DNA of 64,000 nt, from NCBI GenBank assembly GCA_041677125.1, contig JBAYQP010000007.1:13998-77997 (forward strand), written 5' to 3'. The notes beneath the pieces were generated by a model. The model was not told where the DNA came from and did no database searches. It saw only the letters and a program-made list of their open reading frames with translations. Made by a program: the position numbers and the translations under genes. How positions within the stretch are numbered: the stretch's first letter is position 1; the number at the start of each line of letters is the position of its first letter. Origin of the DNA: Desulfuromonadales bacterium (GTDB taxonomy: Bacteria > Desulfobacterota > Desulfuromonadia > Desulfuromonadales > JACZKF01). Shown piece by piece: positions 33,378-63,065 of the stretch.

Positions 33378-33402
33378 CCTTTTGTTGGATGTTGCAATCA
33401 GT

Positions 33403-33433
33403 GGCACGCCCTTAGGGGCGTGCCTTTTTTTTT
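33403..33433 (+). terminator. Rho-independent terminator after the lipoprotein gene
   Basis: Stem GGCACGCCC/GGGCGTGCC with a 4-nt loop, followed by T9. Confidence 0.85.
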
Positions 33434-33532
33434 GCGCCTTCGCCTTTCTGGAAAGTTTGTTTTTGCGCGAGGCTGGCCGGTGCGGAGACCCGAATCCTTG
33501 CCAAAAACCGTACCCGTGTTAATTTTCTCCTA

Positions 33533-33548
33533 GGGTATGAAATTTGCG
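33533..33548 (+). promoter_or_regulatory. Candidate sigma54 (-24/-12) promoter of the stand-alone lyase-fold gene
   Basis: GGGTAT-gaaat-TTGCG has GG-N10-GC spacing and a TTGC -12 element. It lies 34 nt upstream of ATG 33582. Confidence 0.4.
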
Positions 33549-33581
33549 AAATAAATGCCCGATTTCGAGGAGAGGCCGAAG

Positions 33582-34862: not shown

Positions 34863-35102
34863 CACATTAACGTCAGTATTTTAATCCTTTCCTTTCGCCT
34901 TAGCCGTAATACTTTCCTCTCCTGAATCGAAACTTTAGTTCAATTGCAATCCGTTAGATAATATTTACTTTTTGGTCTGATGCTAATCGGGGTCCACTCA
35001 TCTGGGATTTGTCGCTGTGATGATTGTTGCTGTAATGCCTCTTCAAACTCGCGTCGCAGGCCAATATCAAACTTAATCTAAAGCCAAGTACTGGAAGGTT
35101 TT

Positions 35103-39436: not shown

Positions 39437-39495
39437 GCGCACCGTGGGGCGACGGCAAATCTACAGCGCTATCGACGTATTGGGAATCTTGGGCA

Positions 39496-41058
39496 ATGAC
39501 TGAAATCGGCAAACGGCAGGTTCCTCGCAACCTGCTGATGAACATTTTGTCCTTTGGCGTCAATATCGGAGCGGGTCTCTGGTTGGTGCCGTACCTCATC
39601 GGCCATCTCGGGACGGCTGCCTACGGTCTCGTGCCGCTGGCCATGGTATTTACGCAATTCGTCAGCGTCATCACGCAATCCTTTAACGTAGCAACCGGTA
39701 GATCCCTGACTCTTTGCATTCAGGGGAAGAACCAAGGCGGGGCGACGGCCGTGTTCAACACGTCACTTCTCGTGGCGCTTGGCTTCGTCACAGTTCAGGC
39801 CTTGGTCTGCGTTGTTATATTGCTCAACCTTGGATATGCGGTTCAGATTCCCGCCGGGCTTTATCGGGACTGCTTATGGTTGTTCGGATTCACCTTTGCC
39901 GGATTCTTGTTTTCACTGATAGGCTCGGTTTTCTCTATATCGATGTATTCCCATAATCGGGTCGATCTGATGCGATTGAATGATATCGCCCGGATGGTCG
40001 GACGCATTGCCACTATCATCACTCTCTTCCTTTTCTTTGGCCCCGCGCTCATCCATGTAGGGATCGGCAATTTTGTCGGCGGTCTGGTTGGCTTGGCGAT
40101 GAACGCCCATGTCTGGAAGAAACTCACCCCGGAATTGAAAATAAGTTTACGTACGGCGGATCTGGGGCAGTTGCGGCCAATGGCCGTCATGGCGGGATGG
40201 ATTCTGGTAAACCAGCTTGGCTATCTGCTGTTTCTGCGCATCGATACCTATGTCATCAACCGATTCATCGGTCCGGAAGCCTGCGGCGAATATGCGGCGG
40301 TCCAGCAGTGGAATCAGTTGGCTCGAACCACGGCGGGAGTTCTCTCCGGAGCGATAGCGCCGCTGGGGATGATCTACTATGCCCGCGGAGAAATAGGCAA
40401 GCTCGTCCGTATGATGCAGCTCGCAGTCAAGCTGATGGCGCTGGCTATGGCTGCGCCCTTGGCGCTTCTGTGTGTCTTTTCGGGCGAAATCCTCGCGCTC
40501 TGGTTGGGAGAAGGCTTTCGCGGGCTTGGGGCGCTGATGATCCTTCAGCTCTCTCCCCTGGTCGTTAATTTGGGTGTGCTGCCATTGTTCACCATTAACA
40601 CCGCACTGAACCGGGTGAAGTTTCCCGCTATCCTCACCTTCGTTCTGGGGGGCGCGAATCTGCTGCTTGCCATCCTGTTTGCCACCAGGACCAATTGGGG
40701 ATTTTACGGGGTCGCTGCTGCGGGTGTCATCGTACTGACCGTGAAAAACCTTCTTTTTACCCCCTTTTATGCCGCGCACATCCTTGAATTGCCGAAATTC
40801 GCCTTCTTCCGTCCGCTTCTCGGTGGCGCTACGGCTTTTCTGACCCTGTCCGGCCTGGGGGTGGCGGTGCACGGCCTATTGCGGTTCGATAGTTTCCCGG
40901 AAATCGCCCTGGCCCTTTGTTTTATTTGTATCGGGGTGGGGCTGCCCATTGCCTGGCTGGGGCTTTCGTCTGAGGAAAGAGGCCTGTTGGCAGACTTCGC
41001 ACCGACATTCAGCCGTAAATTCGCCAGAAGAGCTTTGCTTGTCAGAACTGCGAAATAA
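39496..41058 (+). CDS. Oligosaccharide flippase (Wzx / MOP superfamily)
   Basis: 520 aa, polytopic, with a typical polysaccharide-biosynthesis-protein N-terminus NLLMNILSFGVNIGAGLWLVPYLIGHLGTAAYGL. Confidence 0.8.
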   Translation: MTEIGKRQVPRNLLMNILSFGVNIGAGLWLVPYLIGHLGTAAYGLVPLAMVFTQFVSVITQSFNVATGRSLTLCIQGKNQGGATAVFNTSLLVALGFVTVQALVCVVILLNLGYAVQIPAGLYRDCLWLFGFTFAGFLFSLIGSVFSISMYSHNRVDLMRLNDIARMVGRIATIITLFLFFGPALIHVGIGNFVGGLVGLAMNAHVWKKLTPELKISLRTADLGQLRPMAVMAGWILVNQLGYLLFLRIDTYVINRFIGPEACGEYAAVQQWNQLARTTAGVLSGAIAPLGMIYYARGEIGKLVRMMQLAVKLMALAMAAPLALLCVFSGEILALWLGEGFRGLGALMILQLSPLVVNLGVLPLFTINTALNRVKFPAILTFVLGGANLLLAILFATRTNWGFYGVAAAGVIVLTVKNLLFTPFYAAHILELPKFAFFRPLLGGATAFLTLSGLGVAVHGLLRFDSFPEIALALCFICIGVGLPIAWLGLSSEERGLLADFAPTFSRKFARRALLVRTAK

Positions 41059-41068
41059 GGACTATTCG

Positions 41069-42217
41069 ATGTCTGAAGTCCACATGAACAAAATATTCGA
41101 AGACGTTCTGCTCGCCGGGTACTACGGACGGCAGAACGTCGGGGACGACTGCTTTGGCGTGATTGGGACCTGGGGCGCAAGAAACTACTGGCATACGGAA
41201 ACTGTTCGTCTGCTGTCTCATTACCCTTTGACGTCCACGGTTGCAACGGTGTCCTGCCTGCCTCCTCGCCCGTCCTTCAAAGGGCAAAATCTTCTTGCGA
41301 CCTGTTATCGGATGCTGAAAGCCGGGGTCGTGGTCTGGGCGGGGGGATCGACCTTTCACTCGCGGCAGGTCTGGCACGCGCCGAAGGCGCTGTCGATGGC
41401 CGCGTCGAAGATCGGTGCGGTTCCCGCCGGAGCCATCGGTGTCTCTCTTGGTCCCTATCGGTCGATAGAAGATGAAAAGGCGGTGCATTCCCAACTCACG
41501 AGCCTGAATTTCCTCGCTCTCCGCGATGCCACCTCTTTTCAGGAGGCCCTGACCCTGGATCTGCCCTATCCGCCGGTATTGGCATCCGATCTGGCCATGC
41601 TGCTTCCGCGCATTAAACCGACGGGCGAGAGCCGGTGGAAAGAGGACATTCTGGGAATTTCGCTCTGTCATTATGAAAGATACGCAGGAAAAAAGATCGC
41701 CAGGGAAGAACAGAGAGAAAACGACCTGCTTCTTGCCTTAACAAGATTGCTCCAAAATGGCTACTCCGGAAAGCTGCGGTTTTTCATCTTCAATGGCCAT
41801 GACCGATATGGCGACGCCGAGATCACCCGGCAATTTCTGCACAAGGTGACACCCTACAGTCGGGACATCGAAGTCGTCCCTTATTCCGCCGATCCGCTTG
41901 ATATCTTCAATAAAGTGGCGGAATGCTCTTTCTTTTTAACGATTCGTCTGCACGGTTGCATTTATGCGGCCGCAGCCAATGTCCCCTGTGTTTCGATTGA
42001 ATATCACAAGAAATGTTCCGACTTTCTCGATGATATCGGCGTCGATCCGCAGTGGCGGGTAGGTGACTTGGACTGTGGGGCCGACCATCTGTCGGATTTG
42101 CTCGGCCGATTGGCCGGTTATAGGGAGGATGGTTTCTACCCAGGTCGCGACCGGCTTATCCACTTGGCCGAGCAGAACTTCCTTGGGCCGGTCCAACACT
42201 ACCGCACAAAGGACTGA
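41069..42217 (+). CDS. Polysaccharide pyruvyl transferase family protein
   Basis: Has the YYGRQNVGDD motif near the N-terminus and the C-terminal ...RLHGCIYAAAANVPCVSIEYHKK pattern. Start at ATG 41069 (or 41084). Confidence 0.7.
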   Translation: MSEVHMNKIFEDVLLAGYYGRQNVGDDCFGVIGTWGARNYWHTETVRLLSHYPLTSTVATVSCLPPRPSFKGQNLLATCYRMLKAGVVVWAGGSTFHSRQVWHAPKALSMAASKIGAVPAGAIGVSLGPYRSIEDEKAVHSQLTSLNFLALRDATSFQEALTLDLPYPPVLASDLAMLLPRIKPTGESRWKEDILGISLCHYERYAGKKIAREEQRENDLLLALTRLLQNGYSGKLRFFIFNGHDRYGDAEITRQFLHKVTPYSRDIEVVPYSADPLDIFNKVAECSFFLTIRLHGCIYAAAANVPCVSIEYHKKCSDFLDDIGVDPQWRVGDLDCGADHLSDLLGRLAGYREDGFYPGRDRLIHLAEQNFLGPVQHYRTKD

Positions 42218-42224
42218 ACGGATC

Positions 42225-43394
42225 ATGCGCATAATACTTATTGGCAATTTGCCGGAATCATTGGTCAATTTTCGTGGCCCCCTCATTGAGCAAATGGTCC
42301 GGCTCGGTCATGAGGTGGTGGCCTGTTCGCCTCCCGCTGCGCAGGAGGTGCAGGTGAAATTGCAGGCTTTGGGCGCAGCTTACCGTCCGGTGCCGTTGTC
42401 GCGGGCCGGCATGAACCCGTTTCATGATTTGAAAAGTTTGTTCGCCCTTTTCCGCCTCTTTCGCCAGGAACGGCCTGATCTTGTTTTAACCTACACAATC
42501 AAGCCGATTGTCTACGGCTCTTTAGGCGCCTCTCTGGCCGGAATTCCTCGAATTGCTTCCATTATTACCGGCCTCGGCTTTTCCTTTTCCGCGGGGGCGG
42601 GTAGAAAGACGCTGGTCAACCGGCTGGTCTGTCTTCTCTACCGCTATGGGCTGAAAAGAAACCAGGTGGTCTTTTTCCAAAATCCGGACGACAGGCAACT
42701 CTTTCAGACTCTGGGTTTGGTAAAGCTTCCGAGCCGAAGCGTCCTGATCAACGGCTCCGGCGTTGATCTGGAACGATATTCCATCGCTCCAATGCCGAAG
42801 AAAACCCAATTCCTGCTGGTCGCCCGGCTAATCCGGGAGAAGGGAATCCGCGAATACTGTGAGGCGGCGAAGCGGGTTAAAGCCAAATACCCGCAGGTCT
42901 GCTTTCGCCTGGTCGGCATGCTCGATAAGAACCCCGAGGCGATTCGGCGGGAAGAAATCGAAGCGTGGGTCGCCCAGGGCAGTGTCGAGTTTCTCGGCTA
43001 TCTCCCCGATGTGCGCCCAGCTATCGCCGATACGTCCATTTATGTACTTCCCTCTTTTTATCGCGAAGGAACGCCACGCTCCACATTGGAAGCGATGGCG
43101 ATGGGCCGTGCCGTCATTACGACCGATGCGCCTGGTTGCCGGGAGACCGTGGTCGAAGGGCGCAACGGCTTTCTCGTCCCGACCCAGAATACGGATGCTT
43201 TGGTCCGGGCCATGGAACGATTCATCCTGGAACCGGATCTGATTCGCACCATGGGGCGGGAGAGTCGCAGGCTGGCCGAGGACAAATTCGATGTGCGGAA
43301 AGTCAACCGCGTCATTCTGGAGAACCTGGGGCTGCTTGATACGGGAAAAGAATATCCAGCTCCGCAACCCGTCCATTCCACAATGCGAGGCTAA
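42225..43394 (+). CDS. Glycosyltransferase family 4 (GT-B)
   Basis: Start at MRIILIGNLPESL. The EX7E region is REGTPRSTLEAMAMGRAVITTD. Confidence 0.85.
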   Translation: MRIILIGNLPESLVNFRGPLIEQMVRLGHEVVACSPPAAQEVQVKLQALGAAYRPVPLSRAGMNPFHDLKSLFALFRLFRQERPDLVLTYTIKPIVYGSLGASLAGIPRIASIITGLGFSFSAGAGRKTLVNRLVCLLYRYGLKRNQVVFFQNPDDRQLFQTLGLVKLPSRSVLINGSGVDLERYSIAPMPKKTQFLLVARLIREKGIREYCEAAKRVKAKYPQVCFRLVGMLDKNPEAIRREEIEAWVAQGSVEFLGYLPDVRPAIADTSIYVLPSFYREGTPRSTLEAMAMGRAVITTDAPGCRETVVEGRNGFLVPTQNTDALVRAMERFILEPDLIRTMGRESRRLAEDKFDVRKVNRVILENLGLLDTGKEYPAPQPVHSTMRG

Positions 43395-43395
43395 C

Positions 43396-44514
43396 ATGCC
43401 GGAAATGCAATCGGAATTTATAAATACGACAGATCGTCGCTGGCGGGCCGTTCTGCAGCGGGTTCCGCATGATTTCTACCAGTTTCCCGAGTACCTCCGT
43501 TTCACCGGGGAAGCCGAAGGGGGCGAACCGCTGGCCTTCTGGGCCGAAGCGGAAGGCAGCGCCTTCTTGCTCCCTCTGCTGCGCCGGAAAATTCCTGAGG
43601 CACTGAACGCGCCTGCGGATTGGCATGATCTGGCCACCCCTTACGGTTACCCAGCCCCTCTGCTGGCCGGCGACGCGGCCCTTTGGCCCCGTTTTCTTTC
43701 CCGGTTTGCGGCATGGGGTCGGGAGCACTCCGGGGTCTGCGCTTTTGTCCGGCTGCATCCACTGCTGGCGCAGCCGGTCTTGCCGGCCGATCCGCTCTTC
43801 GCGCTGCAGAGCCACGGGCAGACGATCTACATGGACCTTGAACCGTCCGCGGAGGACATTTCCAGGCGCATTCGGGAGAATCACCGCCGGGATATCAAGA
43901 AGCTGCGGAAGTCGGGATTCGAAGTGCGGATGGACGACTGGGACGATCTTGGCGAATTCGTCAATCTTTACCACCAGACCATGGAGCGCTTGTCTGCCGA
44001 TTCCTTCTATTTTTTCTCTGGCGATTACTTCCGAGAGCTTAGAAGGGCCTTGCCGCACAATATGCATCTCTGCTCGATCCGGTCCCCTGAGGGCGAACTG
44101 GCCGCTGCCGCCCTGTTCGTCTGCACCAATGGAATCATTGAATACCACCTGGGCGGCACCGCCGGAAAATTTCTGTCCCAAGCTCCTTCCAAACTGATGT
44201 TCGATTTCGTCTGGCGCTGGGGGAAAGAGGCAGGTTTTCGATTCTTTCATCTTGGCGGAGGGCTCGGCGCCAGCAAAGATAGCCTGTTTCGCTTTAAAGA
44301 GGGCTTCTCCAGGCAAAGGGGCGAATTCGCTACCTTGCGCATCATTTTCGACATGGAAAAATATCGATTTCTCGAAAAAGAATGGCAGCAAGGGAGCGCT
44401 CAGCTCGATCATGCCGATTACTTTCCCGCTTACCGTCGACCCGGTCGAGGGGATGAAGTCGAAACGGGGTTCTCATCTTCCTTGACAACTGCGCAAGAGA
44501 TGATATCTGAATAG
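43396..44514 (+). CDS. FemAB-like / GNAT-fold aminoacyl- or acyl-transferase
   Basis: Start 1 nt after the upstream stop. It shows a duplicated GNAT-like architecture with IEYHLGGT ... FFHLGGG ... LFRFKEGFS, as in the FemAB / Acetyltransf_6 family. Confidence 0.6.
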   Translation: MPEMQSEFINTTDRRWRAVLQRVPHDFYQFPEYLRFTGEAEGGEPLAFWAEAEGSAFLLPLLRRKIPEALNAPADWHDLATPYGYPAPLLAGDAALWPRFLSRFAAWGREHSGVCAFVRLHPLLAQPVLPADPLFALQSHGQTIYMDLEPSAEDISRRIRENHRRDIKKLRKSGFEVRMDDWDDLGEFVNLYHQTMERLSADSFYFFSGDYFRELRRALPHNMHLCSIRSPEGELAAAALFVCTNGIIEYHLGGTAGKFLSQAPSKLMFDFVWRWGKEAGFRFFHLGGGLGASKDSLFRFKEGFSRQRGEFATLRIIFDMEKYRFLEKEWQQGSAQLDHADYFPAYRRPGRGDEVETGFSSSLTTAQEMISE

Positions 44515-44677
44515 TCTTCCTGATTGATAAAGATGCCAAAGCCAAACCTTTCGCAAGGGAGGGGCGGAAAGCCACGGGTCTCACCGAGACGGCCGGGCTG
44601 CCAAAAGGATGCATCACCCTGAGGCGGTCCGGCCTTTTTGTGCGCATAAGATTAAAAAAATAAAATTGGAGAATTAG

Positions 44678-45439
44678 ATGAAAATTGCCGTTTTGGTCAA
44701 ATCCGTCCCCGACACGGCCGGCACGCCGGAAATCGGCCCGGATGGGCGCAGCGTCGTTACGGAGCATCTGGAAACCGTCCTCAATCCCTATGACGAGATC
44801 GCCGTTGAGGAGGCGGTGCGGATGAAGGAGGCGCTGGGCGCCGAGGTGGTGGCGGTCGGTCTGGGGGACGAGGCAGCGCGCAAGGCGTTGCGCACCGCTT
44901 TTGCCATGGGCGCGGACGCGGCGGTTCTGGCGCGGCGCCCGGAAGAAGAACCGCTGACGGGAAAGGGCGCGGCGCTCTGCCTGGCGCCGGTCCTGCGGGA
45001 GCTGCGGCCGGACCTGATCCTCGCCGGCAAGCAGGCGGTGGACGATGACGGGGCGCAGGTGGCCGAGCGGGTGGCGGAAATGTTGGGTTACCTGCACGCC
45101 TCGGCAGTGACCCGGCTGGCCAAGGATGGGGCGCAACTGGTCGTTGACCGGGAAATCGAAGGGGGCGCCTTGTCCATGGAATTTCCCTTGCCGGCGGTGC
45201 TCACCGTGGAAAAGGGGCTCAACACGCCGCGCTATCCGACCCTGCCGCAAATCCTCAAGGCCAAACGCAGGGAAATCCGGGAGGTGGCAGTCGACGGTGA
45301 AGGCGTGCGGCCTGGCTGGCGGGTGGACGTCCTGTCTTTGCCGGATACGCAACGAAGGCGGCAAATTTTCCAGGGGACGGTGACGGAGCAAGTCGACAAT
45401 CTGCTCCGGGAAGCGCGGCCATTGGGAGGGCTGTCATGA
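44678..45439 (+). CDS. etfB: Electron transfer flavoprotein, beta subunit
   Basis: Contains MKIAVLVKSVPDT, NPYDEIAVEEAVR and LILAGKQAVDDDGAQV. Confidence 0.9.
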   Translation: MKIAVLVKSVPDTAGTPEIGPDGRSVVTEHLETVLNPYDEIAVEEAVRMKEALGAEVVAVGLGDEAARKALRTAFAMGADAAVLARRPEEEPLTGKGAALCLAPVLRELRPDLILAGKQAVDDDGAQVAERVAEMLGYLHASAVTRLAKDGAQLVVDREIEGGALSMEFPLPAVLTVEKGLNTPRYPTLPQILKAKRREIREVAVDGEGVRPGWRVDVLSLPDTQRRRQIFQGTVTEQVDNLLREARPLGGLS

Positions 45440-46413
45440 GCATACTGGTGCTTCTCGAACCGCGCGGTGAACTGACCTCGTCCTGCCTGAGCACCGTCGC
45501 GGCGGCCGGGCGTCTGGCACGGGATACCGGGGTGGAACTGCACGCCGTCTGGCCCTCGCCGGGAATCCGCGCGCAACTCGGCCGGCTGGCGGGTCTGGGC
45601 ATCCAAACCGTGCATACGGTGCGGGAGGATGTTCTCCCCCCATTCAGCCACGAGGCCTGGATTCCGTTTCTGGCGGACTTGACTCGCTCGCTCGGCGCGC
45701 GCCTGGTGGTCGCTCCGGCCTCGGCCTTGGGCAAAGCGTGGAGCGCCGCCCTGGCGGCCCGTCTCGACGCGGAGCTGGCGCAGGATTGCCTCGGCCTCGA
45801 AGCCGCCGAAGGCGGCGTCCCCACGGTCCGGAAACCTCTTTACGCCGGGAAAATTGTCGCCACTCTGCGGCTCACCGGCGCGCCGGCCCTGGCGACGCTG
45901 CGGGCGGGCGCCGCCCAGGTCGTCAGGGCAGGGGAGCAGACGCCGGAAATCGCCTGGCACGTAGTGCCGCCCCCGGAGTTGCGCTCGGTGGTGCGGGAGT
46001 TGGTGCAGAACGCCGGCGGCGCCATTGAGTTGGGAGAGGCGCGGGTTGTCGTCGCCGGCGGTCGTGGCCTCGGCGGTCCCGACAATTGGCCGGTTTTACG
46101 GGAGTTGTGCGCCACCCTGGGCGCGGCCCTCGGGGCGAGCCGGGCCGCCGTCGATGCCGGCTGGATCCAGCACGCGCACCAAGTCGGCCAAACCGGCCGG
46201 GTGGTCAGCCCCGATCTGTACATCGCCTGCGGCATCTCCGGTTCGATTCAACACCTCGCCGGCATGCGCGGGGCAAAAACGGTGGTCGCCATCAACAAGG
46301 ATCCGGCGGCGGAAATCTTCCAGCATTGCGATTACGGCCTGGTCGGCGATCTGTTGCAGATCGTTCCGGCTTTAACCGCTGCCGTAAAGCAGCGGCAGCG
46401 TCGGGTGGCCTGA
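45436..46413 (+). CDS. etfA: Electron transfer flavoprotein, alpha subunit
   Basis: Has a 4-nt overlap with etfB. The C-terminal FAD-binding region is VVAGGRG...GASRAAVDAGW...QVGQTG..V.PDLYIACGISGSIQH.AG. Confidence 0.9.
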   Translation: MSILVLLEPRGELTSSCLSTVAAAGRLARDTGVELHAVWPSPGIRAQLGRLAGLGIQTVHTVREDVLPPFSHEAWIPFLADLTRSLGARLVVAPASALGKAWSAALAARLDAELAQDCLGLEAAEGGVPTVRKPLYAGKIVATLRLTGAPALATLRAGAAQVVRAGEQTPEIAWHVVPPPELRSVVRELVQNAGGAIELGEARVVVAGGRGLGGPDNWPVLRELCATLGAALGASRAAVDAGWIQHAHQVGQTGRVVSPDLYIACGISGSIQHLAGMRGAKTVVAINKDPAAEIFQHCDYGLVGDLLQIVPALTAAVKQRQRRVA

Positions 46414-46422
46414 GGAAATTCG

Positions 46423-48414
46423 ATGGAAATGAGCCGTCCTCTCGGCGTCTACGGTGATTTTTATTGGCTGATGTACCTGCTGAGCGCCGGCGCCCTTGCA
46501 ATTTTCACCTTCGGAGTCCGTGCCCGCGTCCGCCGCTGGCGGGTGGGGGAGGGGCGTCTCGGCGATCGGCTGGACCGGCCATGGCGGCGTCTGCGCGACC
46601 TCGCCGTCGATCTGGCCACCCCGCGCCGGTTCCGCCGGCGCGGCAAGCCCTGGCTGTTTCATTCCCTCATGGTCTGGGGATTCGCGCTGTTTCTGCTGGC
46701 GACTTTTTGTGTGCTGTTGCAGGAGCGTTTCGGCCTGTCGACGTTTGCCGGCGGCTGGTATCTGCTGCTCTCGCTGGCCCTCGATCTTTTCTCGATCCTT
46801 TTTCTGGCGGGAGTGATGTTCGCCGCCTGGCGGCGCTGGGCCGTCCGGCCGGCGGAGCTCGGCGGGGGGGCGGAGGATGGCGCTGTGCTGGCGGTTCTGG
46901 CGCTGTTGCCGACGACCGGCCTGATCCTGGAGGCGGTGCGGATGGCCAAGGATCCGGACCCCTGGGGGGCCTGGTCGCCGGCGGGCGCCTGGCTGGCCGG
47001 CGGTTTTTCCGGCCTCGCTCCGGCGACCCTTGATAGTCTGCACCGGGGACTCTGGTGGGGGCATCTTGCGCTCTCTCTCGGATTTGTCGCCGCCATCCCC
47101 TATGGCCGCTTGTTCCACCTGATTGCCGGACCGCTTTCGTTGTTTTTCGCCGACCGTCACCGGGCGCGGTCCCTGGCGCCCCTGGATTTTACGGACGAGG
47201 CGGCGGAACGCTTCGGCGCCGAGCGCGTCGGCGACCTGCACTGGAAAAGCCTGGTGGAGACCGACGCCTGCCTCGATTGCGGTCGCTGTCAGAGCGATTG
47301 CCCCGCCTGGGAAATCGGCGAGCCGTTATCGCCGCTGCAAATCGGCCAGGGTGTGCGCCGATGTCTGGACCGGGAGACGTCGCTGGGGCGGCGGGCTGCC
47401 GCCTCTCTCCACGAACAAATTTCGGAGGAGGCGCTCTGGGCCTGCTCCACCTGCGGCGCCTGCGAGCGCGCCTGCCCGGTGGCGGTCGAGCATGTGCCCC
47501 GGTTGGTGGCGCTGCGGCGTTATCGGGTGCTGAGCGAATCGCGGTTTCCCGCCGAGCTGCAGACCACTTTCCGCAATCTGGAACGCTCCGGCAATCCCTG
47601 GGGGATGCCGGCGCGGGAGCGCGGCGAAAGGGCGACGGCGGCCGGGTGGCCCCTGGCCGCCGAGACGCCGCCGGCGGAAGTTCTGCTCTGGACCGGGTGT
47701 GCCGGCGTGTTCGATCCCCGCTACCGCCAGGTGACCGCCGCCCTGGCCAAACTCCTCGATTTGGCCGGAATTTCCTATGTCGTGCCGGGAGACGAGGCGG
47801 TCTGCTGCGGCGACGGCGCCCGGCGTCTGGGAAACGAGTACCTGTTCCAGGACCTGGTGGCGAAGAATATGACCTTTTTCGAGAAAATCGGCGTGCGCCA
47901 GGTGGTGACCGCCTGCCCGCATTGCTTCAACTGTTTGCAACACGAATATCCGCAGTTCGGCGGCGATCTCACGGTCACCCACCACAGCGAATTTCTCGCC
48001 GATCTGCTGGCGGCCGGTCGGTTGCCGGCGGCAGACGGTGCGGAAAAATCGACTATCGGCTTTCACGACCCCTGCTATCTCGCCCGCTACAACGGGATAT
48101 CGGCGGCCCCCCGCCGGGTATTGGCCGCCCTCGGGAGCGATCTTTACGAACCGGCGCGGACCGGACCCGACGCCTTCTGCTGCGGCGGCGGCGGGGGCCG
48201 GATGTGGCTGGAAGAAAAGGAGGGCCGGTCGATGGGAAAGCAACGGGTGCGGCAGTTTCTCGATGGCGGCGCCCGGCGGATCGCCACCGCTTGCCCCTTT
48301 TGTCTGACGATGTTGTCCGAGGGCGTACGTCGGAACGCGGAAGCGGAAGACGTCCGGGTCCTCGACCTGGCCGAACTGATGGTGGAAAACATGACCCGAC
48401 CTGATCGGCGTTGA
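46423..48414 (+). CDS. Membrane-anchored (Fe-S) oxidoreductase, HdrD/GlpC-like (putative ETF:quinone oxidoreductase)
   Basis: The N-terminal ~270 aa is polytopic. Two ferredoxin motifs follow (CLDCGRCQSDCP, CSTCGACERACP). There are also two CCG-type Cys-rich domains (CCGDG...CPHC; CCGGGG...CPFC). Confidence 0.85.
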   Translation: MEMSRPLGVYGDFYWLMYLLSAGALAIFTFGVRARVRRWRVGEGRLGDRLDRPWRRLRDLAVDLATPRRFRRRGKPWLFHSLMVWGFALFLLATFCVLLQERFGLSTFAGGWYLLLSLALDLFSILFLAGVMFAAWRRWAVRPAELGGGAEDGAVLAVLALLPTTGLILEAVRMAKDPDPWGAWSPAGAWLAGGFSGLAPATLDSLHRGLWWGHLALSLGFVAAIPYGRLFHLIAGPLSLFFADRHRARSLAPLDFTDEAAERFGAERVGDLHWKSLVETDACLDCGRCQSDCPAWEIGEPLSPLQIGQGVRRCLDRETSLGRRAAASLHEQISEEALWACSTCGACERACPVAVEHVPRLVALRRYRVLSESRFPAELQTTFRNLERSGNPWGMPARERGERATAAGWPLAAETPPAEVLLWTGCAGVFDPRYRQVTAALAKLLDLAGISYVVPGDEAVCCGDGARRLGNEYLFQDLVAKNMTFFEKIGVRQVVTACPHCFNCLQHEYPQFGGDLTVTHHSEFLADLLAAGRLPAADGAEKSTIGFHDPCYLARYNGISAAPRRVLAALGSDLYEPARTGPDAFCCGGGGGRMWLEEKEGRSMGKQRVRQFLDGGARRIATACPFCLTMLSEGVRRNAEAEDVRVLDLAELMVENMTRPDRR

Positions 48415-48516
48415 TCTTCCGCCAGGTTTTACCCCCCTTTCCTAAGGGGGAACTTTGCCTCTGCGGAAAATTGACACGCATCAGCTTACCCGAAGTAAAG
48501 CGGAAGGAGATCCGAC

Positions 48517-48768
48517 ATGAGCGGCAACGAACGGCAGGCGATTCGAGAGTTCATCACCACCCGCATCGCGAAAAAAAGCGAACACCGGCAGATTGGGGAT
48601 CAGGACGACGTCATCGCTTTGGGGGTCATCGATTCCCTCGGCATCATGCACCTGATTGCCTACTTGGAAAAGACCTTCGGCATGCGCATCCGGGACGACG
48701 AGATTTTGCCGGAAAACTTCGCTTCGGTGGAAGCCATTGCTTCTTTTGTTCATCGCACTCGGGCCTGA
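48517..48768 (+). CDS. Stand-alone acyl/peptidyl carrier protein (DltC/PCP-like)
   Basis: 83 aa with the phosphopantetheine attachment motif GVIDSLGIMHLIAYLE. A GGAAGGAG SD lies upstream. Confidence 0.75.
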   Translation: MSGNERQAIREFITTRIAKKSEHRQIGDQDDVIALGVIDSLGIMHLIAYLEKTFGMRIRDDEILPENFASVEAIASFVHRTRA

Positions 48769-48787
48769 CGGCGGGAGAATACAGGCA

Positions 48788-49801
48788 ATGGAAAACTACG
48801 ATTCGTCCGTAAGCACTCGCGACATTCCGATGATTCCCGGCCGCAAGGTGGCCCTGCCGAAGGTCTACGGCGACACTCCGACTTTCCTCGGCGTGCCGAA
48901 GCTCGATCCGGGCGTCCTCGGCCATCCGCCCGATGTGGCCATCATCGGCGTTCCCTGGGAGGGGACGGTCACCTGGGGCTCCTTTACCGGCTGCGAACTG
49001 GCGCCGCGAACCATCCGCCACTGTGCCGCCCGCTACGGGGGTTTTCTGCCGGAGTACGAGATCGATCTTTTCGACCACCTGAGCCTCGCCGATGCCGGGG
49101 ACGTGGCCGTCGATCCGAACAGCCCGCGGGCCACCATGGACCGGATCTTTGCCGCGATGCACGGAATTTACCGCAGCGGCAGCATTCCCATCGTTCTCGG
49201 CGGCGATCATTCCTTTACCCCGGAGGTGATTCGCGCCCTCAACGCCAACCGCCCCGGCAAGGTCGGGGTCATTCATTTCGATTCGCATTTCGACAACGCC
49301 AAGGGGTTCGGCGCCGATCTCATGCCGCGCTGCTCCCCCCTGCATCGCATCGCCCAATTGCCCGGGGTGAGAACGCGCAGCATCGTCCATGTGGGGATTC
49401 GCGGCCCCCGCAACTCCCCGTCGCAGATGGCCTACGCCCGGGAAATGGGGGCGAGCATCTTCACCATCCGCGACATCCGCAAAATGGGGATCGACGCGGT
49501 GATCGAGGAAGCGATCGCCATCGCCCGGCAGGGGACGGAGCATCTTTACGTCACCATCTGCAGCGACTGTATCGACGCCGCCTCCAATCCGGGCGGGCCG
49601 GCCGACTTCAACGGTTTGTTCGCCCATGAGCTGTTCGCTGCTTTGTACCGGCTGGGCGAATCGGGCATCGCCGGCCTCGACTTCGTCGAAGTCTACCCCG
49701 GCCAGGATCCCCATTCCTTCTCCTCGCATCTGGCGTCCTGGGCGATTATTCACGCCCTGGCCGGGATGGCGGCGGGCAAGAAGCGGCAGGGTCTGAGCTG
49801 A
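48788..49801 (+). CDS. Arginase/agmatinase/formiminoglutamase-family ureohydrolase
   Basis: Start at MENYDSS (ATG 48788). All binuclear-Mn motifs are present: LGGDHSFT, HFDSHFD and CSDCIDAASNPG. Confidence 0.8.
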   Translation: MENYDSSVSTRDIPMIPGRKVALPKVYGDTPTFLGVPKLDPGVLGHPPDVAIIGVPWEGTVTWGSFTGCELAPRTIRHCAARYGGFLPEYEIDLFDHLSLADAGDVAVDPNSPRATMDRIFAAMHGIYRSGSIPIVLGGDHSFTPEVIRALNANRPGKVGVIHFDSHFDNAKGFGADLMPRCSPLHRIAQLPGVRTRSIVHVGIRGPRNSPSQMAYAREMGASIFTIRDIRKMGIDAVIEEAIAIARQGTEHLYVTICSDCIDAASNPGGPADFNGLFAHELFAALYRLGESGIAGLDFVEVYPGQDPHSFSSHLASWAIIHALAGMAAGKKRQGLS

Positions 49802-49837
49802 TTTTCCAGAACTGATTTCTCAAGTGGAGGTGCGTCC

Positions 49838-50983
49838 ATGGATTTTTCTTTGTCGCCGGAGCAGAGCGAATTGCGGGAGGCGGTGGTTCGCTTCGCCCAG
49901 AAGGAGCTGACGGATGATGTCGCCGGCCGGGAAAAAAGAGGGGAGTTTTATCGCGACGGCTGGCGCAAATGCGCCGATTTCGGCTTGCTCGGGCTGCCGG
50001 TTCCGGAGGCGTACGGCGGCCTGGGGCTCGACGCCCTCTCCTGCGTGCTGGCCCTGGAGGGGCTCGGCTACGGCTGCCGGGACCACGGTCTGGTGTTCGC
50101 CCTCAACTCCCACCTGTGGACCTGCGTGAAGCCGATACTCGGCTTCGGCAGCGCCGCGCAGAAGGAGAAGTATCTGCCGTCCCTGGTGCGCGGAGAGGCG
50201 ATCGGCGGCCACGCCATGACCGAACCGGACGCCGGATCGGACGCCTTCAGCATGCGCTGCCGGGCGCAGAAGGAAGGCAATCGGTACATTCTCAACGGCA
50301 GCAAAATCTTCATCACCAACGCGCCCATCGCCGACCTGCTGCTGGTGTTCGCGGTGACCGCTCCGGAGCGCGGTTTCGGCAGCATATCCGCCTTCATCGT
50401 CGAAAAAGATTTCCCCGGCTTTTCCGTCGGCCGGCCGCTGGAGCTGATGGGATTGAAAACCTGTCCCATCGCCGAAGTCGTCCTCCAGGACTGCGTGGTT
50501 CCGGAAGAGAACCGCCTCGGCGGCGAGGGGGCGGGGATGGCCATCTTCAACTCGGAAATGGAGTGGGAGCGCGGCTGCCTGTTCGCCGCCCATCTCGGCG
50601 CCATGGAGCGGGAGTTGGAAGCCTGTGCCCGCTACGCCGGCGAACGCCAGCAGTTCGGCAAGCCGATCGGCGGCAACCAGGCGGTGTCGCACAAGATTGC
50701 CGACATGGCGATGCGGGTCGAGCTCTCGCGGCTGATTCTCTACAAGGTCGCCTGGATGAAAGGGCAGGGGGCGCGGGCGCCGAAGGAATCGGCCATCGCC
50801 AAGCTGTTCATCAGCGAAAGCTATGTGCGCAACAGCCTCGACGCCCTGCAGATGCACGGCGCCTACGGCTATTCGGTCGAATACGACCTGGAGCGGCATG
50901 TGCGCGACTCCCTCGGCGGCCGCATCTATTCCGGAACCTCGGAAATCCAGCGCAACATCATTGCCAGTTTTTACGATCTGTAA
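49838..50983 (+). CDS. Acyl-CoA dehydrogenase-fold flavoenzyme
   Basis: 381 aa with GHAMTEPDAGSD, GSKIFITNA and a C-terminal ...IYSGTSEIQRNII. A GGAGG SD lies upstream. Confidence 0.9.
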   Translation: MDFSLSPEQSELREAVVRFAQKELTDDVAGREKRGEFYRDGWRKCADFGLLGLPVPEAYGGLGLDALSCVLALEGLGYGCRDHGLVFALNSHLWTCVKPILGFGSAAQKEKYLPSLVRGEAIGGHAMTEPDAGSDAFSMRCRAQKEGNRYILNGSKIFITNAPIADLLLVFAVTAPERGFGSISAFIVEKDFPGFSVGRPLELMGLKTCPIAEVVLQDCVVPEENRLGGEGAGMAIFNSEMEWERGCLFAAHLGAMERELEACARYAGERQQFGKPIGGNQAVSHKIADMAMRVELSRLILYKVAWMKGQGARAPKESAIAKLFISESYVRNSLDALQMHGAYGYSVEYDLERHVRDSLGGRIYSGTSEIQRNIIASFYDL

Positions 50984-51000
50984 GCCGAAGGGAGTTTCCG

Positions 51001-52593
51001 ATGTCGCCCTACCTCCTGTCCCATCTGCTCGATCTGAGCGCCGAAAAATATCCGCGGCGTCCAGCCGTGATCCAGGGGGAGCGGACCCTGGATTATGCCG
51101 ATCTGGCCGGCCTGGCCGGCCGCCTGGCCGCAGCCCTGGTCGATCTCGGCGTGCGGCCGGGGGACCGGGTCGGTCTGCTGACGGGCAAATCCCTGGAGGG
51201 GGTGGCCGCTATTTACGGCGTCCTTCGGGCCGGCGGGATTTACGTCCCCCTCGATCCGCAGGCGCCGCCGCAGCGGCAGGGGAAGATCCTGGATCGCTGC
51301 GCGGTGGCGGTGATGATCGCCGATGCCCGGCTGGCCGCGCCGATTCTCGCGGATCGGGAAGCGCGGGCCGGGGTGCGGGCGGTTATCCTGATCGGCGAAG
51401 GGGCGGATGTTCAGAGCGGGGTGCGCCTTCTGCCCCTGGCGGCGCTCGAGCACTATCCGCCAGCGGCTCCGGCCCGGATCTCCGATGCCCGGCCGGCCTA
51501 TATCCTTCACACCTCCGGTTCGACGGGCGTGCCCAAAGGGGTGACCATCTCCCATCGGAACGCCCTCGCTTTCGTCGGGATGGCGGCCGACTTTTTCGCC
51601 ATCGGCCGGGAGGACCGCCTGGCCAGCCATGCGCCCTTTCATTTCGACCTGTCGATCTTCGATCTTTTCGTGGCGGCGCAGGCCGGGGCGGCCGTCGTTC
51701 TGGTGCCGGAAAATCTCGGCATTTTTCCGGCGCGCCTGGCCCAGTTCATCGACAAGTCGGGCATTACGGTGTGGAATTCCGTCGCCTCGGTCGTCTCCTT
51801 ACTGGCCGAACGGGGCAATCTCGACGCCTGCCACCTCGACGCCCTGCGGCTGGTCCTCTTCTCGGGGGACATTCTTCCGGTCCGCCAACTGCGCCGGGTG
51901 CGGGAGGCGATGCCGGGGGCCGAACTGTACAATCTCTACGGACAGACGGAAGCCAACTCCTCCACCTTCTTCCGGGTGGGGGAGATCCCGGCCGATCCGT
52001 GCTGGAAAATCCCCATCGGCAAACCGTTTCCCAATTTCGAGGTTTTCGCCCTCGATGAAACCGGCCAACCGATCCGCCGGCCCGGTGAAATCGGGGAACT
52101 GCATGTCTATGGTGCGACGGTGGCTCTCGGCTATTGGCGGGACGACGAAAAAACGGCCGCCGCCTTCGTCGAGCACCCGCTGCATCCCTGGCCGGGGAAG
52201 GTCTACCGCACCGGCGATCTGGTCGCTCTGGACGATGCGGGAAACCTGCTTTTCCTCGGCCGCCGCGATCGCCAGGTGAAGAGCCGCGGATACCGGATTC
52301 AGATCGACGAAATCGAGCATGCGCTCAACAACCATCCGGCGGTGGAGAAGGGGGCTGCGGTGGATATCCCCGACGACCTGCTGGGCTGCCGCATCATTGC
52401 CTTCGTGCGCCTGGCGGCCGGCGGCGACGATACGGATCTGCTCGATTTCTGCAGCCGGTCGTTGCCGCCCTACATGCTTCCCGAACGCATCATCACGCTG
52501 AATGAATTTCCGTGCACCGCCACCGGCAAGATCGATCGCAACGCCCTGCGCGCGATGCGGGGACGGACCGAACCGGCAGAGGCCGTCGGCTGA
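51001..52593 (+). CDS. Stand-alone adenylation enzyme (NRPS A-domain / DltA-like AMP-ligase)
   Basis: Real start at MSPYLLSHL (ATG 51001); the 49969 ORF extension overlaps the ACAD gene. The A-domain cores are HTSGSTGVPKG, FHFDLSIFD, NLYGQTE, YRTGDL, GRRDRQVKSRGYRIQIDEIE, LPPYMLP and TGKIDR. Confidence 0.85.
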   Translation: MSPYLLSHLLDLSAEKYPRRPAVIQGERTLDYADLAGLAGRLAAALVDLGVRPGDRVGLLTGKSLEGVAAIYGVLRAGGIYVPLDPQAPPQRQGKILDRCAVAVMIADARLAAPILADREARAGVRAVILIGEGADVQSGVRLLPLAALEHYPPAAPARISDARPAYILHTSGSTGVPKGVTISHRNALAFVGMAADFFAIGREDRLASHAPFHFDLSIFDLFVAAQAGAAVVLVPENLGIFPARLAQFIDKSGITVWNSVASVVSLLAERGNLDACHLDALRLVLFSGDILPVRQLRRVREAMPGAELYNLYGQTEANSSTFFRVGEIPADPCWKIPIGKPFPNFEVFALDETGQPIRRPGEIGELHVYGATVALGYWRDDEKTAAAFVEHPLHPWPGKVYRTGDLVALDDAGNLLFLGRRDRQVKSRGYRIQIDEIEHALNNHPAVEKGAAVDIPDDLLGCRIIAFVRLAAGGDDTDLLDFCSRSLPPYMLPERIITLNEFPCTATGKIDRNALRAMRGRTEPAEAVG

Positions 52594-52611
52594 CCGAAAA
52601 GGAGAACGACA

Positions 52612-53247
52612 ATGCTGTCGCTGTTGCGCATCAAATACCTGCAATTTCTCGAACATGCGCGGGAGAAGGGATTTTCTTCCGCAGTGGCGTTCACCTTGTA
52701 CAAATACGAAGAAGCGGTGCCGGTGGAGAAGGACCTCGCGACGCTGAAGCCGTTGCCGGAATCGACCGAAACAGATCTGCGGCTCCTCGATCTGGGACCG
52801 GAGAATTTTGCCGGATATTGTCTCGACTATCCCCTGGCCAGCCGCCGGCAACGGGTCGAGCGCTATTTCCGGTGCGGCTACCGGTCTCTCGCCATGGTGC
52901 GCGGCAACCGGGTGCTCGCCGATCTCTGGTACGTGACCCGCGACAGCGCCCGCACCCCCGGTATTCACCCGCATGTCCAATGGTTCGGCATCGACCTCGG
53001 GCCGCACATGGCCTACATGTTCGACATGCATTTTCTGCCCGGACAGCGGGGCGGCGGCGCCGCCACCTTTTTCATGGGCAGCGCCCTGCACCATCTGCGG
53101 GACCGGGGGTTCATCCGGGCCTACGGCTATTTCGCCGCCCACAACACCCCAGCTCTCTGGGTTCACCGGCTGCTGGGCTGGCGGGAACTCCCTCGCTTCG
53201 ATGTCCGGAGATTTCTCCTCTATGAAACCGCCAAGCCCAAAATCTGA
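52612..53247 (+). CDS. GNAT-fold acyltransferase (putative)
   Basis: 211 aa; AAGGAG SD. It has a motif-A-like GQRGGGAATFFMGSAL followed by ...AHNTPALWVHRLLGW. Family assignment is tentative. Confidence 0.5.
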   Translation: MLSLLRIKYLQFLEHAREKGFSSAVAFTLYKYEEAVPVEKDLATLKPLPESTETDLRLLDLGPENFAGYCLDYPLASRRQRVERYFRCGYRSLAMVRGNRVLADLWYVTRDSARTPGIHPHVQWFGIDLGPHMAYMFDMHFLPGQRGGGAATFFMGSALHHLRDRGFIRAYGYFAAHNTPALWVHRLLGWRELPRFDVRRFLLYETAKPKI

Positions 53248-53899
53248 TCCCTTGCCGCCCCGGCCGCAGCCCGGCAAGCGGGCGATGGATGTGTTTTTCT
53301 GTCTCGCCGCCGCGCCGGTCTGGCTGCCGGTTACCGCCCTGGTCGGCCTGCTGGTCAGGTTTTCTTTGGGCTCGCCGGTGCTGTTTCGCCAGGAGCGTCC
53401 GGGAACGCTGGAAAAACCCTTTCTCCTGATCAAGTTCCGCACCATGACCGATGCCCGCAACGCGGCGGGAAGCCTGCTGCCGGATGGCCAGCGCCTGACA
53501 CCACTGGGGCGCTTTTTGCGCCGCAGCAGCCTCGATGAACTGCCGGAGCTGTTCAATGTGCTGCGCGGCGAGCTCAGTCTGGTCGGGCCGCGTCCCCTGC
53601 TGGTGAAATACCTCCCCTACTTTTCGGCGAAAGAGAAGCTGCGGCATACGGTTCGACCGGGATTGACCGGCTGGGCGCAAATAAACGGCCGCAATTATCT
53701 TCCCTGGGACCAGCGGCTGGCCATGGATGTCTGGTATGTCGAAAACTGGTCGCTCTGGCTGGATATGCGCATTTTGTTCGCCACCATCGGCAAAGTCCTG
53801 CGGCGCGAAGGGGCGGCGGCCGACAGCGATCAGGCCGAAACCGATCTCGATTGGGAGCGGCGACGGGAATTGGCCGGGTCCGGAGACAAGGGCCCATGA
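53222..53899 (+). CDS. Small monotopic phosphoglycosyl (sugar) transferase, PglC/WbaP-C-like
   Basis: Contains KRAMDVFF, GSPVLFRQERPG, FKFRTM, DELPELFNVLRGELSLVGPRP and PGLTGWAQINGR. It overlaps the GNAT gene by 26 nt. Confidence 0.85.
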   Translation: MKPPSPKSDPLPPRPQPGKRAMDVFFCLAAAPVWLPVTALVGLLVRFSLGSPVLFRQERPGTLEKPFLLIKFRTMTDARNAAGSLLPDGQRLTPLGRFLRRSSLDELPELFNVLRGELSLVGPRPLLVKYLPYFSAKEKLRHTVRPGLTGWAQINGRNYLPWDQRLAMDVWYVENWSLWLDMRILFATIGKVLRREGAAADSDQAETDLDWERRRELAGSGDKGP

Positions 53900-59652: not shown

Positions 59653-59681
59653 AAACATTTCTCCCGAAAGAGGAAGACAAC

Positions 59682-60479: not shown

Positions 60480-60569
60480 AGCCGTCCCCAAAACTCGCCA
60501 ACGGCGGCGTCGCCGCAAGTGCTCCCGCTGCTTCGATCTCCATAAGCACGCATCATTGCCCGACAATCG

Positions 60570-63037: not shown

Positions 63038-63065
63038 AAACATAGTCGGACAGCGTTCCGGACGA

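Follow-up and report, generated by a model that had tools for sequence, protein, structure and literature searches.

A predicted ETF and ETF:menaquinone oxidoreductase module linked to an adenylation, carrier-protein and dehydrogenase cassette in a Desulfuromonadales polysaccharide locus

A 64,000-nucleotide stretch of a Desulfuromonadales metagenome-assembled genome (MAG; contig JBAYQP010000007.1, positions 13,998 to 77,997), referred to here as the window, carries in a polysaccharide locus three consecutive genes that with near certainty encode the two subunits of an electron-transfer flavoprotein (ETF), EtfB and EtfA, and a membrane-bound Fe-S protein of the EMO/EtfD type, an ETF:menaquinone oxidoreductase (EMO). 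Judged from their sequences, the three products together constitute a complete non-bifurcating EtfAB plus EMO/EtfD set, and the trio most likely re-oxidises, without oxygen, a carrier-protein-dependent amino-acid dehydrogenase encoded just downstream. The genes lie on the + strand at 44678-45439 (etfB, 253 aa), 45436-46413 (etfA, 325 aa) and 46423-48414 (the Fe-S protein, 663 aa); etfB and etfA overlap by 4 nt (ATGA) and 9 nt separate etfA from the Fe-S gene, exactly as in an earlier note that had delimited the module from the bare sequence. That note had further placed the module, on the same strand, between a FemAB-like gene (43291-44514) and a carrier-protein gene (48517-48768), and had proposed it as a private electron sink for a single acyl-CoA dehydrogenase (ACAD)-fold enzyme 1.4 kb downstream. 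The placement was borne out, and the ACAD gene (49838-50983), which starts 1.42 kb past the Fe-S gene, is the only one in the window; an arginase-fold gene between the carrier-protein and ACAD genes (48788-49801) had gone unnamed.

The Fe-S protein is predicted to combine a NarI-like heme-b membrane domain with an HdrC-like domain for two [4Fe-4S] clusters and an HdrB-like one for two non-cubane clusters. It matched the Mycobacterium smegmatis EMO (MsEMO; PDB 9OJN_A) with E=4.5e-100 and 339 bits, over one stretch in the membrane part (residues 56-312) and one in the soluble part (333-657). Pfam recognised two CCG domains (E=1.8e-35), a 4Fe-4S dicluster domain, Fer4_8/Fer4_10 and, weakly, a NarI-like N-terminus, for which Nitrate_red_gam reached 21.6 bits, just under its cut-off of 22.9. 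The polytopic N-terminus, the two CxxCxxCxxxCP motifs and the two CCG clusters described in the earlier note were all present: the former motifs read CLDCGRCQSDCP at residue 283 and CSTCGACERACP at residue 341, the CCG triplets stand at 461 and 586, and both CCG motifs are complete (C426-X34-C461C462-X35-C498xxC501 and C551-X34-C586C587-X36-C624xxC627). A hydropathy scan gave four clear transmembrane segments and a weaker fifth stretch that holds H214 and H232. These two residues and H80, the heme-ligand histidines, align with those of MsEMO and are invariant in eight members of the clade described below, in which all cluster cysteines are invariant as well; the spacing of 18 residues between H214 and H232 equals that between H233 and H251 of the Syntrophus aciditrophicus EMO (SaEMO), whose cryo-EM preprint defines the EMO family (bioRxiv 10.64898/2026.08.18.745454). 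Electron transfer to EMO/EtfD from ACAD-reduced ETF has been shown biochemically and structurally in the literature, and the ETF-to-menaquinone route, which the earlier note had called proposed, is now on firmer ground since the family has been characterised in both ways.

EtfB (Pfam ETF, E=1.8e-35) was classed as the small, beta subunit of a non-bifurcating ETF and EtfA (Pfam ETF and ETF_alpha) as the large, alpha subunit. Both folds were found, together with the alpha-FAD (flavin adenine dinucleotide) motif (YIACGISGSIQHLAG at residue 262 of EtfA) and the recognition loop by which EtfB docks to dehydrogenases, which reads PRYPTLPQILKAK against PRYATLPNIMKAK in the human protein and retains Leu at the human position, all as expected of a non-bifurcating ETF that serves ACADs. 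A bifurcating ETF would instead couple acyl redox to ferredoxin or NAD, with the Fe-S protein acting like a heterodisulfide reductase rather than reducing quinone. Such a role would fit the top PDB match of EtfA, which is the bifurcating Clostridium difficile protein (180.7 bits, against 169.3 for human EtfA), the known homology of the soluble EMO part to HdrB/HdrC, and the AQV that the nucleotide loop of EtfB (DDDGAQVAE) has in common with DGDTAQVGP, the b-FAD recognition stretch that marks bifurcating ETFs (PMC9232219). However, the loop agrees with that motif at only 5 of 9 positions (G123, T125, G129 and P130 are missing), and the motif was missing from every EMO-linked EtfB examined, cassette-type and catabolic alike. 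EtfB aligned end to end with ETF beta subunits that contain AMP (human, 140 bits; Paracoccus, 139 bits), whereas its alignment with bifurcating EtfBs was limited to residues 1-202; EtfA has no N-terminal ferredoxin domain, its residues 12-314 aligning with 81-388 of CarE; EMO-linked ETF has been described in the literature as non-bifurcating; and the Fe-S protein has a NarI-like heme domain with all three conserved histidines. We consider a bifurcating ETF highly improbable, and the missing b-FAD motif suggests that EtfB holds AMP and no second FAD.

The presumed electron donor to this ETF, an ACAD-fold flavoenzyme (49838-50983, + strand), was assigned to the aminoacyl-carrier-protein dehydrogenase subfamily (AnaB/PigA-like). 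Against PDB structures it scored 423.5 bits with AnaB (4IRN) and 343.8 with PigA (5ZW0), and the best ordinary ACAD reached 328.8; NCBIfam equivalog cut-offs were missed, narrowly for PigA (458.6 against 500) and also for RedW (430.9 against 650). Upstream of it lies the gene for a stand-alone acyl/peptidyl carrier protein (PCP) of 83 aa (48517-48768, + strand; Pfam PP-binding) with a DSL motif whose serine is residue 40, and downstream that for a stand-alone amino-acid adenylation enzyme of 530 aa (A-domain; 51001-52593, + strand; TIGR01733 at 355.8 bits, above the cut-off of 317.4), which is predicted to load the carrier protein and has PltF as its best single-domain PDB match (6O6E, 283.1 bits). 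A stand-alone A-domain and a carrier protein near the ACAD are what would be expected of a prolyl-carrier dehydrogenase system; the pocket of the A-domain is not. Ten-residue pocket codes were extracted from more than 30 A-domains that came from an ACAD-based scan described below, with a GrsA fragment as the control, which gave the canonical DAWTIAAICK. The code of the window, DLFNLSLSSK, differs at 278, 301, 330 and 331 from DL[FL]Y[LI]A[LW]VCK, which we take to be the type-II prolyl code, and is more polar than that class (N278, S301, S330, S331), with D235 as its only acidic residue. The earlier note had named PltE/RedW-type enzymes as aerobic relatives of the ACAD; by bit score the enzyme is AnaB/PigA-like, but its partner A-domain lacks the prolyl-type pocket.

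Between the carrier protein and the ACAD is encoded the arginase/ureohydrolase-fold protein (48788-49801, + strand, 337 aa; Pfam Arginase, E=3.1e-63), a subtype-specific hydrolase of the cassette; the other subtype has an Amidohydro_2 protein in its place. Against the HutG and agmatinase models it scores equally, at ~116 bits, in both cases under the cut-off. The GGDH and DxHxD-type (FDSHFD) metal motifs are present and the third reads SDCIDAASNP, against the usual SxDxDxxDP; the metal site or the substrate may be atypical.

EMO homologs were then taken down an identity gradient and their gene neighbourhoods read (loci are cited by our L numbers). The order EtfB-EtfA-EMO-PCP-[hydrolase]-ACAD-A-domain is kept in glycan loci at nine of nine loci, namely the window, L002-L005, L167, L168, L170 and L171. 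Identity of the EMO to that of the window is 76% in L002, 58% in L003 (a Desulfuromonas MAG), 56% in L168, 53% in L004, 51% in L005, 50% in L167 and 46% in both L170 and L171; pairwise identities among the eight loci with intact genes span 45-88%. While this order stays, the gene that precedes etfB differs from locus to locus, as do the glycosyltransferases, and among L003, L004, L005, L167 and L170 an Orn/DAP/Arg-type decarboxylase and a PylC-like ATP-grasp ligase replace the FemAB-like gene. The PCP and EMO genes share 4 nt, at the EMO stop codon, in L005, L167, L168 and L171, and in L171 the entire EtfB/EtfA/EMO/PCP run is joined through 4-nt overlaps. As a side observation, the gene calls of L002 (ENA contig_63166, 9058-15851) break up or shorten etfA, EMO, ACAD and A-domain, although protein identities to the window are 76-96%; this is more likely due to frameshifts in a long-read assembly than to pseudogenes.

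Outside this group the surroundings of EMO genes were of another kind, either beta-oxidation or unrelated settings. L006 (EMO 49%) and L169 (47%) are thiolase/CoA-transferase/enoyl-CoA hydratase/ACAD/carboxylase operons, and neither there nor at 80 background EMO loci (34-43% identity) was there a PCP, arginase-fold, GNAT211 (a 211-aa GNAT-like protein), Bac_transf or endonuclease/exonuclease/phosphatase-family (EEP) neighbour; the background came from a metagenome contig scan with an EMO alignment, and all of it is at or below 43% identity and none of it of the cassette clade. The linkage of the etfBA-FeS genes to ACAD and A-domain genes, whose co-occurrence the earlier note had singled out as informative, was accordingly seen at 9/9 loci inside the clade and 0/82 outside (Fisher p = 1.3e-12, uncorrected for phylogeny). 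All cassette ACADs also have the signatures MEWER and IYSGTSE in common, where the catabolic ACADs of L006 and L169 have LDYER and IGAGTSE. In a neighbour-joining tree of 70 EMO homologs, which included seven of the nine cassette-locus EMOs, these seven fell in one clade of 23; the exact 23-sequence clade was recovered in 85/100 bootstrap replicates and the exclusion of the catabolic P0021 and P0022 in 100/100. P0026, the immediate sister of the clade, is also cassette-type. A trio kept beside beta-oxidation genes regardless of the glycan locus, which the earlier note had named as evidence that would count against its proposal, was not encountered in the clade and was confined to distant catabolic paralogs (L006, L169 and L130), presumably the ancestral ones. 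A separate point concerns L130 (5352-11977), a catabolic module in which the gene of a 600-aa FadE-type ACAD separates etfA from that of the EMO. With the window it shares 51-52% identity in the Etf subunits but only 35% in the EMO, and Etf and EMO phylogenies are therefore not congruent.

A reverse scan of species-representative genomes with an ACAD alignment gave 80 loci, about 35 of which have an ACAD of at least 49% identity, nearly all with an adjacent A-domain and PCP. Three pocket classes could be distinguished. The class DLFN[LIH]S[LIV]SSK, found in the window, L003, L004 and the trio-less Geomonas group, always goes with an arginase-fold gene; DMFKL[GA][VA][IV]SK, found in L005, L036, L034 and L038, goes with Amidohydro_2 in the three neighbourhoods read (L005, L036 and L034); and DL[FL]Y[LI]A[LW]VCK belongs to loci of Chloroflexota, Actinomycetota and others, none of which has the trio. 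The trio accompanies the first two classes, that is, two ACAD/A-domain subtypes that differ in both pocket and hydrolase, which leaves the ACAD step as its constant partner rather than the substrate, the hydrolase or the upstream ligase, as expected if the ACAD is the client of the ETF. The arginase-fold gene was likewise considered as the partner of the trio and rejected, since subtype-B loci keep the trio without it. In a polysaccharide-export locus, L036, the run EtfB-EtfA-PCP-ACAD-A-domain-Amidohydro_2 (7929-12745) has no EMO gene, and the position of EtfBA directly upstream of PCP, ACAD and A-domain ties the ETF to the ACAD step; a polytopic ORF of 754 aa upstream (5237-7501) has neither a Pfam match nor Cys-cluster motifs. 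The trio of L168 resembles those of L005 and L167 (EtfA/EtfB 81-85%, EtfB alone 83-85%, EMO 67-68%), yet its ACAD is only 50% and its A-domain 39% identical to theirs, the ACAD being of the window type (77-84% identity). We take this to indicate that the trio and the ACAD/A-domain/hydrolase block have recombined.

Several observations weigh against a dedicated sink. None of the roughly 35 species-representative loci with an ACAD of at least 49% identity has the full trio. Other anaerobes (L009, L011, L012 and L013) have this cassette, arginase-fold gene included and with an A-domain of identical pocket class, but no Etf or EMO within 10 kb, and two glycan-embedded loci, L013 (a Geobacter MAG) and L034 (subtype B), also have no trio. 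L009 (Geomonas propionica), L011 (Citrifermentans bremense) and L012 (Geomonas diazotrophica) keep PCP-GNAT211-arginase-ACAD-A-domain (around 7300-13300 in these loci) in a non-glycan context with an MFS exporter; these species are the closest cultured relatives by cassette (ACAD 66-67%, arginase-fold protein 65-66%, pocket DLFNHS[IV]SSK). In L009 genes for an MFS_3 exporter and a DJ-1/PfpI protein adjoin the cassette, whose acyl chemistry may in cultured Geobacteraceae thus also yield a secreted small molecule. The trio is thus a lineage-specific accessory rather than a universal requirement, even in strict anaerobes, and a dedicated sink is not essential. The closeness of the L168 trio to those of L005 and L167 in spite of a divergent ACAD, moreover, shows no tight co-evolution of the ETF with one ACAD. 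Finally, in the window 102 nt separate EMO from PCP and a terminator-like hairpin stands upstream of etfB, so a single operon is putative. The private, anaerobically needed sink of the earlier note was too strongly worded, given the trio-less anaerobes L009, L011-L013 and L034; the linkage behind it, found at every one of the nine clade loci, remains.

The same observations bear on whether the trio is a general catabolic ETF/EMO set, for beta-oxidation or branched-chain acids, which merely resides in the glycan locus and serves many ACADs. ETFs are typically promiscuous toward their ACAD partners, the trio-less L009, L013 and L034 must use an ETF encoded elsewhere or another acceptor, the trio has the GC3 (G+C at third codon positions) of housekeeping genes, and its lineages have recombined with those of the ACAD. 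Yet across nine diverse glycan loci the trio has an unchanged place, in translational coupling with the gene of the carrier protein, and no beta-oxidation genes were found among the called neighbours of these loci; the catabolic paralogs P0021 and P0022 lie outside the clade, in beta-oxidation operons. A resident general set is on this evidence unlikely, and a functional coupling that leads from the ACAD through ETF and EMO to menaquinone, well supported by synteny, translational coupling and phylogeny, is in our judgement probable.

We therefore propose the following route, in which the trio would have been recruited from fatty-acid or amino-acid catabolism into a glycan-tailoring operon. The stand-alone A-domain, whose pocket is not of the classical prolyl type, would load an amino acid on the 83-aa carrier protein, and the aminoacyl-S-carrier would be dehydrogenated by the AnaB/PigA-like ACAD. 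The reduced FAD of the ACAD would be re-oxidised by the ETF, docking through the EtfB recognition loop, and single electrons would pass from the ETF to the non-cubane clusters of EMO, its two [4Fe-4S] clusters, its heme(s) b, the menaquinone pool and finally anaerobic terminal acceptors. The arginase-fold hydrolase would trim the oxidised acyl group, and GNAT211 would probably move it to a 4-amino-4,6-dideoxy sugar just before a PglC-like transferase starts the repeat unit. The direction of flow, the substrate, the sugar acceptor, the product and the module's dedication to this step are all parts of this proposal that we infer, as is the coupling itself; the identities of the parts, their cofactor-ligand motifs, the conserved synteny and the monophyly of the cassette-linked EMOs are observations. 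Electrons might run the other way, from menaquinol through EMO and ETF to an ACAD-fold enzyme that acts as an enoyl- or dehydro-aminoacyl-S-carrier reductase, a biosynthetic analogue of enoyl-CoA respiration: EMO/ETF/acyl-CoA dehydrogenase chains have been reported to be reversible in Syntrophus crotonate metabolism, and the ACAD scores 314.9 bits with an acryloyl-CoA reductase model. The adenylation enzyme, however, loads a saturated amino acid, no gene of the cassette would make an unsaturated precursor, and the ACAD is closest to the oxidising AnaB and PigA, all of which makes reverse flow quite unlikely.

Composition does not set the trio apart. The G+C counts of the earlier note were exact (46/60 at 45721-45780 and 28/60 at 37321-37380), and GC3 agrees with its grouping of the trio (0.79-0.80) with the downstream cassette (0.71-0.84); however, housekeeping ORFs match too (~0.7-0.83), and it is the upstream glycosyltransferase block (0.58) that is the outlier. 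This glycosyltransferase/Wzx block (33555-43394) has a G+C content of 0.48-0.57 and GC3 values of 0.47-0.66 per ORF, markedly below the rest of the window, as one commonly sees in serotype-specific regions that are hypervariable or horizontally exchanged. Horizontal acquisition of the trio together with the cassette, as judged from composition, was rejected, since the GC3 of the trio is that of housekeeping genes and the outlier is the glycosyltransferase block. In the 163-nt gap between the FemAB-like gene and etfB lies the hairpin mentioned above (44591-44639, + strand), with a G+C-rich stem of 12 bp (GGCCGGGCUGCC...GGCGGUCCGGCC) followed by UUUUU; the predicted fold of 44515-44677 has -54.9 kcal/mol (z = -2.54), and an A/T-rich stretch and a GGAG ribosome-binding site follow 3' of the hairpin. 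It may be a terminator or attenuator that parts the glycosyltransferase block from the trio and cassette, which would then start a separate transcription unit. The hairpin was not listed by a terminator consensus scan, probably because its terminal loop exceeds the 3-8 nt limit of the scan, and a consensus scan of 43000-54000 gave no sigma-70-like promoter on the + strand.

Downstream of the A-domain gene lie the genes on which the sugar part of the proposal draws. GNAT211 (52612-53247, + strand; weak Pfam Acetyltransf_1) is 53-82% identical across cassette loci and is followed by a small, 225-aa PglC-like polyprenyl-phosphate sugar-phosphate transferase of the repeat-unit-initiating kind (53222-53899, + strand; Pfam Bac_transf, E=2.6e-59), an EEP-family protein (53896-54873, + strand; Pfam Exo_endo_phos), a DegT-type aminotransferase (55021-56265, + strand; Pfam DegT_DnrJ_EryC1, E=8.2e-104) and a PglF-like 4,6-dehydratase (56300-58231, + strand; Pfam Polysacc_synt_2, E=2.6e-116). 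The DegT and PglF-like genes are kept downstream in L002-L005, L167 and L170, and the EEP gene in these loci and L036. The GNAT211 and PglC-like genes overlap by 26 nt in the window (52612-53899), and GNAT211 is fused to Bac_transf in a single ORF in L002 (15868-17166, 432 aa) and L004 (16118-17386, 422 aa), a Rosetta-stone hint that GNAT211 acts just before repeat-unit initiation, in a PglD-like step. The PglF-like and DegT proteins are expected to make a UDP-4-amino-4,6-dideoxy sugar acceptor, and GNAT211 would probably acylate the amine of that sugar, taking from the carrier protein the acyl group once it has been oxidised and trimmed by the hydrolase. In L170 the EEP gene (8930-9886) interrupts the trio, standing after etfA and ahead of the EMO gene, and is in this way bound up closely with the module.

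The host is a Desulfuromonadales MAG whose SecA is 81-82% identical to those of its nearest cultured relatives, Desulfuromonas versatilis and D. soudanensis. Housekeeping genes fill the first 29 kb of the window, and all genes of 29949-58231 lie on the + strand. The polysaccharide locus runs from PKD/pectate-lyase-like proteins through GT2/GT4 glycosyltransferase genes, Wzx, a pyruvyl transferase and the FemAB-like gene to the trio, PCP, arginase-fold protein, ACAD, A-domain, GNAT211, PglC-like transferase, EEP protein, DegT, PglF-like dehydratase, a BBP2_2 porin and Wzz/BY-kinase; no beta-oxidation gene, second Etf or second ACAD was found in the 64 kb. The FemAB/GNAT-like transferase (43291-44514, + strand; Pfam Acetyltransf_6 and FemAB), the upstream neighbour of the module, is variable between loci. 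The cut-offs of the exosortase-A/PEP-CTERM set of ligase, acyl carrier protein and FemAB were not reached (ligase_PEP_1/TIGR03098 312 against 592; pepcterm_femAB/TIGR03019 42.2 against 260, for the latter far under), and by these scores the window genes are related in theme to that set, yet not members of it. At the head of the locus (29949-34862) are encoded a secreted-type protein of 1142 aa with PKD/Big_9 repeats and a weak pectate-lyase-fold match and a second of 435 aa with a pectate-lyase-fold match alone, which may be glycan-processing or glycan-depolymerising enzymes. Pfam-negative ORFs of the window are 37631-38011, inside the glycosyltransferase block, and, on the minus strand, 21114-21752, 22644-24125, 59625-60602 and 62997-63584; 59625-60602 is the sole candidate minus-strand ORF in the otherwise + strand glycan locus and is possibly no real gene.

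ETF and EMO/EtfD have hitherto been known only as the electron exit from catabolic ACADs, in syntrophic fatty-acid oxidation and mycobacterial beta-oxidation, and an EMO lineage tied to a carrier/adenylation/ACAD cassette would extend them to biosynthesis. Our literature search returned no report of an ETF/EMO module linked to an adenylation/carrier/ACAD triad or to a glycan locus, a result of limited weight given its incomplete coverage. Tentatively, and with somewhat less assurance than an even judgement would carry, we suggest that a distinct sub-clade of the ETF/EMO module was taken over by aminoacyl dehydrogenases that depend on a carrier protein and act in the decoration of surface polysaccharides, and that it serves them as a portable replacement for an oxidase under anaerobic conditions. 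If so, AnaB/PigA/PltE-type enzymes would natively be ETF-dependent dehydrogenases; Desulfuromonadales exopolysaccharides would bear, on a bacillosamine-like sugar, an N-acyl group that stems from an oxidised amino acid and is so far undescribed; and glycan tailoring would be wired directly to the menaquinone pool, possibly with assistance from the proton-motive force via a two-site heme domain. The proposal would explain in concrete terms how an oxidase-type desaturation of an aminoacyl-S-carrier could proceed in strict anaerobes, and it points to a sugar substituent, derived from an amino acid and so far uncharacterised, on the exopolysaccharides that metal-reducing Desulfuromonadales make; these polymers matter for biofilm formation and mineral attachment. 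It also provides a handle for genome mining, etfBA-EMO beside PCP-ACAD marking anaerobic tailoring pathways.

Among known systems, the EMO and EtfAB of S. aciditrophicus (an ETF:methylmenaquinone oxidoreductase; bioRxiv 10.64898/2026.08.18.745454) have the same single-polypeptide architecture as the module of the window, with a NarI-like heme-b domain of five transmembrane segments, an HdrC-like part with two [4Fe-4S] clusters and an HdrB-like part, and this EMO and its gene-linked homolog in Syntrophomonas wolfei share with it the three histidines, the pairing with a non-bifurcating EtfAB and the derivation of electrons from an ACAD. These EMOs, however, serve catabolic ACADs (fatty-acid and cyclohexanoyl-CoA oxidation), whereas the ACAD linked to the trio here is of the carrier-protein-dependent, biosynthetic type and lies in a polysaccharide locus; SaEMO moreover lacks one Cys ligand at the distal cluster, where the window EMO has both five-Cys CCG motifs complete. 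The best solved-structure match of the window EMO is the mycobacterial EtfD (Rv0338c/MsEMO, 9OJN), which works with EtfBA, is genetically proven as the ETF oxidoreductase for multiple ACADs and is a drug target; the 1042-aa EtfD belongs to an aerobe, where it supports beta-oxidation in general from a gene located apart from etfBA, and the 663-aa protein, by contrast, comes from an anaerobe, its gene being linked to etfBA and to that of one ACAD. The catabolic EtfB-EtfA-EMO operons of Desulfobacterota (L006, L169 and L130) have the same genes in the same order with a partner ACAD in the operon, but their neighbours are thiolase, CoA-transferase, enoyl-CoA hydratase, carboxyltransferase and biotin carboxylase genes, their ACADs are IVD-type (LDYER/IGAGTSE), their EtfB recognition loop has Met where the window has Leu, and they fall outside the cassette clade. 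AnaB/PltE/PigA-type dehydrogenases are re-oxidised by O2 in vitro. The triads AnaC/AnaD/AnaB, PltF/PltL/PltE and PigI/PigG/PigA (anatoxin, pyoluteorin and prodigiosin) follow the same three-protein logic and gene adjacency as the cassette, yet they feed polyketide or pyrrole products and have no linked ETF, while the product of the window is apparently attached to a sugar. For that last part the nearest parallel is the PglF/PglE/PglD/PglC pathway to bacillosamine, to which the PglF-like dehydratase, the DegT aminotransferase, GNAT211 in the N-acyltransferase position and the small PglC-like transferase would correspond; the acyl donor, acetyl-CoA in the bacillosamine pathway, would here be a carrier protein charged with a modified aminoacyl group, a proposal based on gene content and the fused ORFs.

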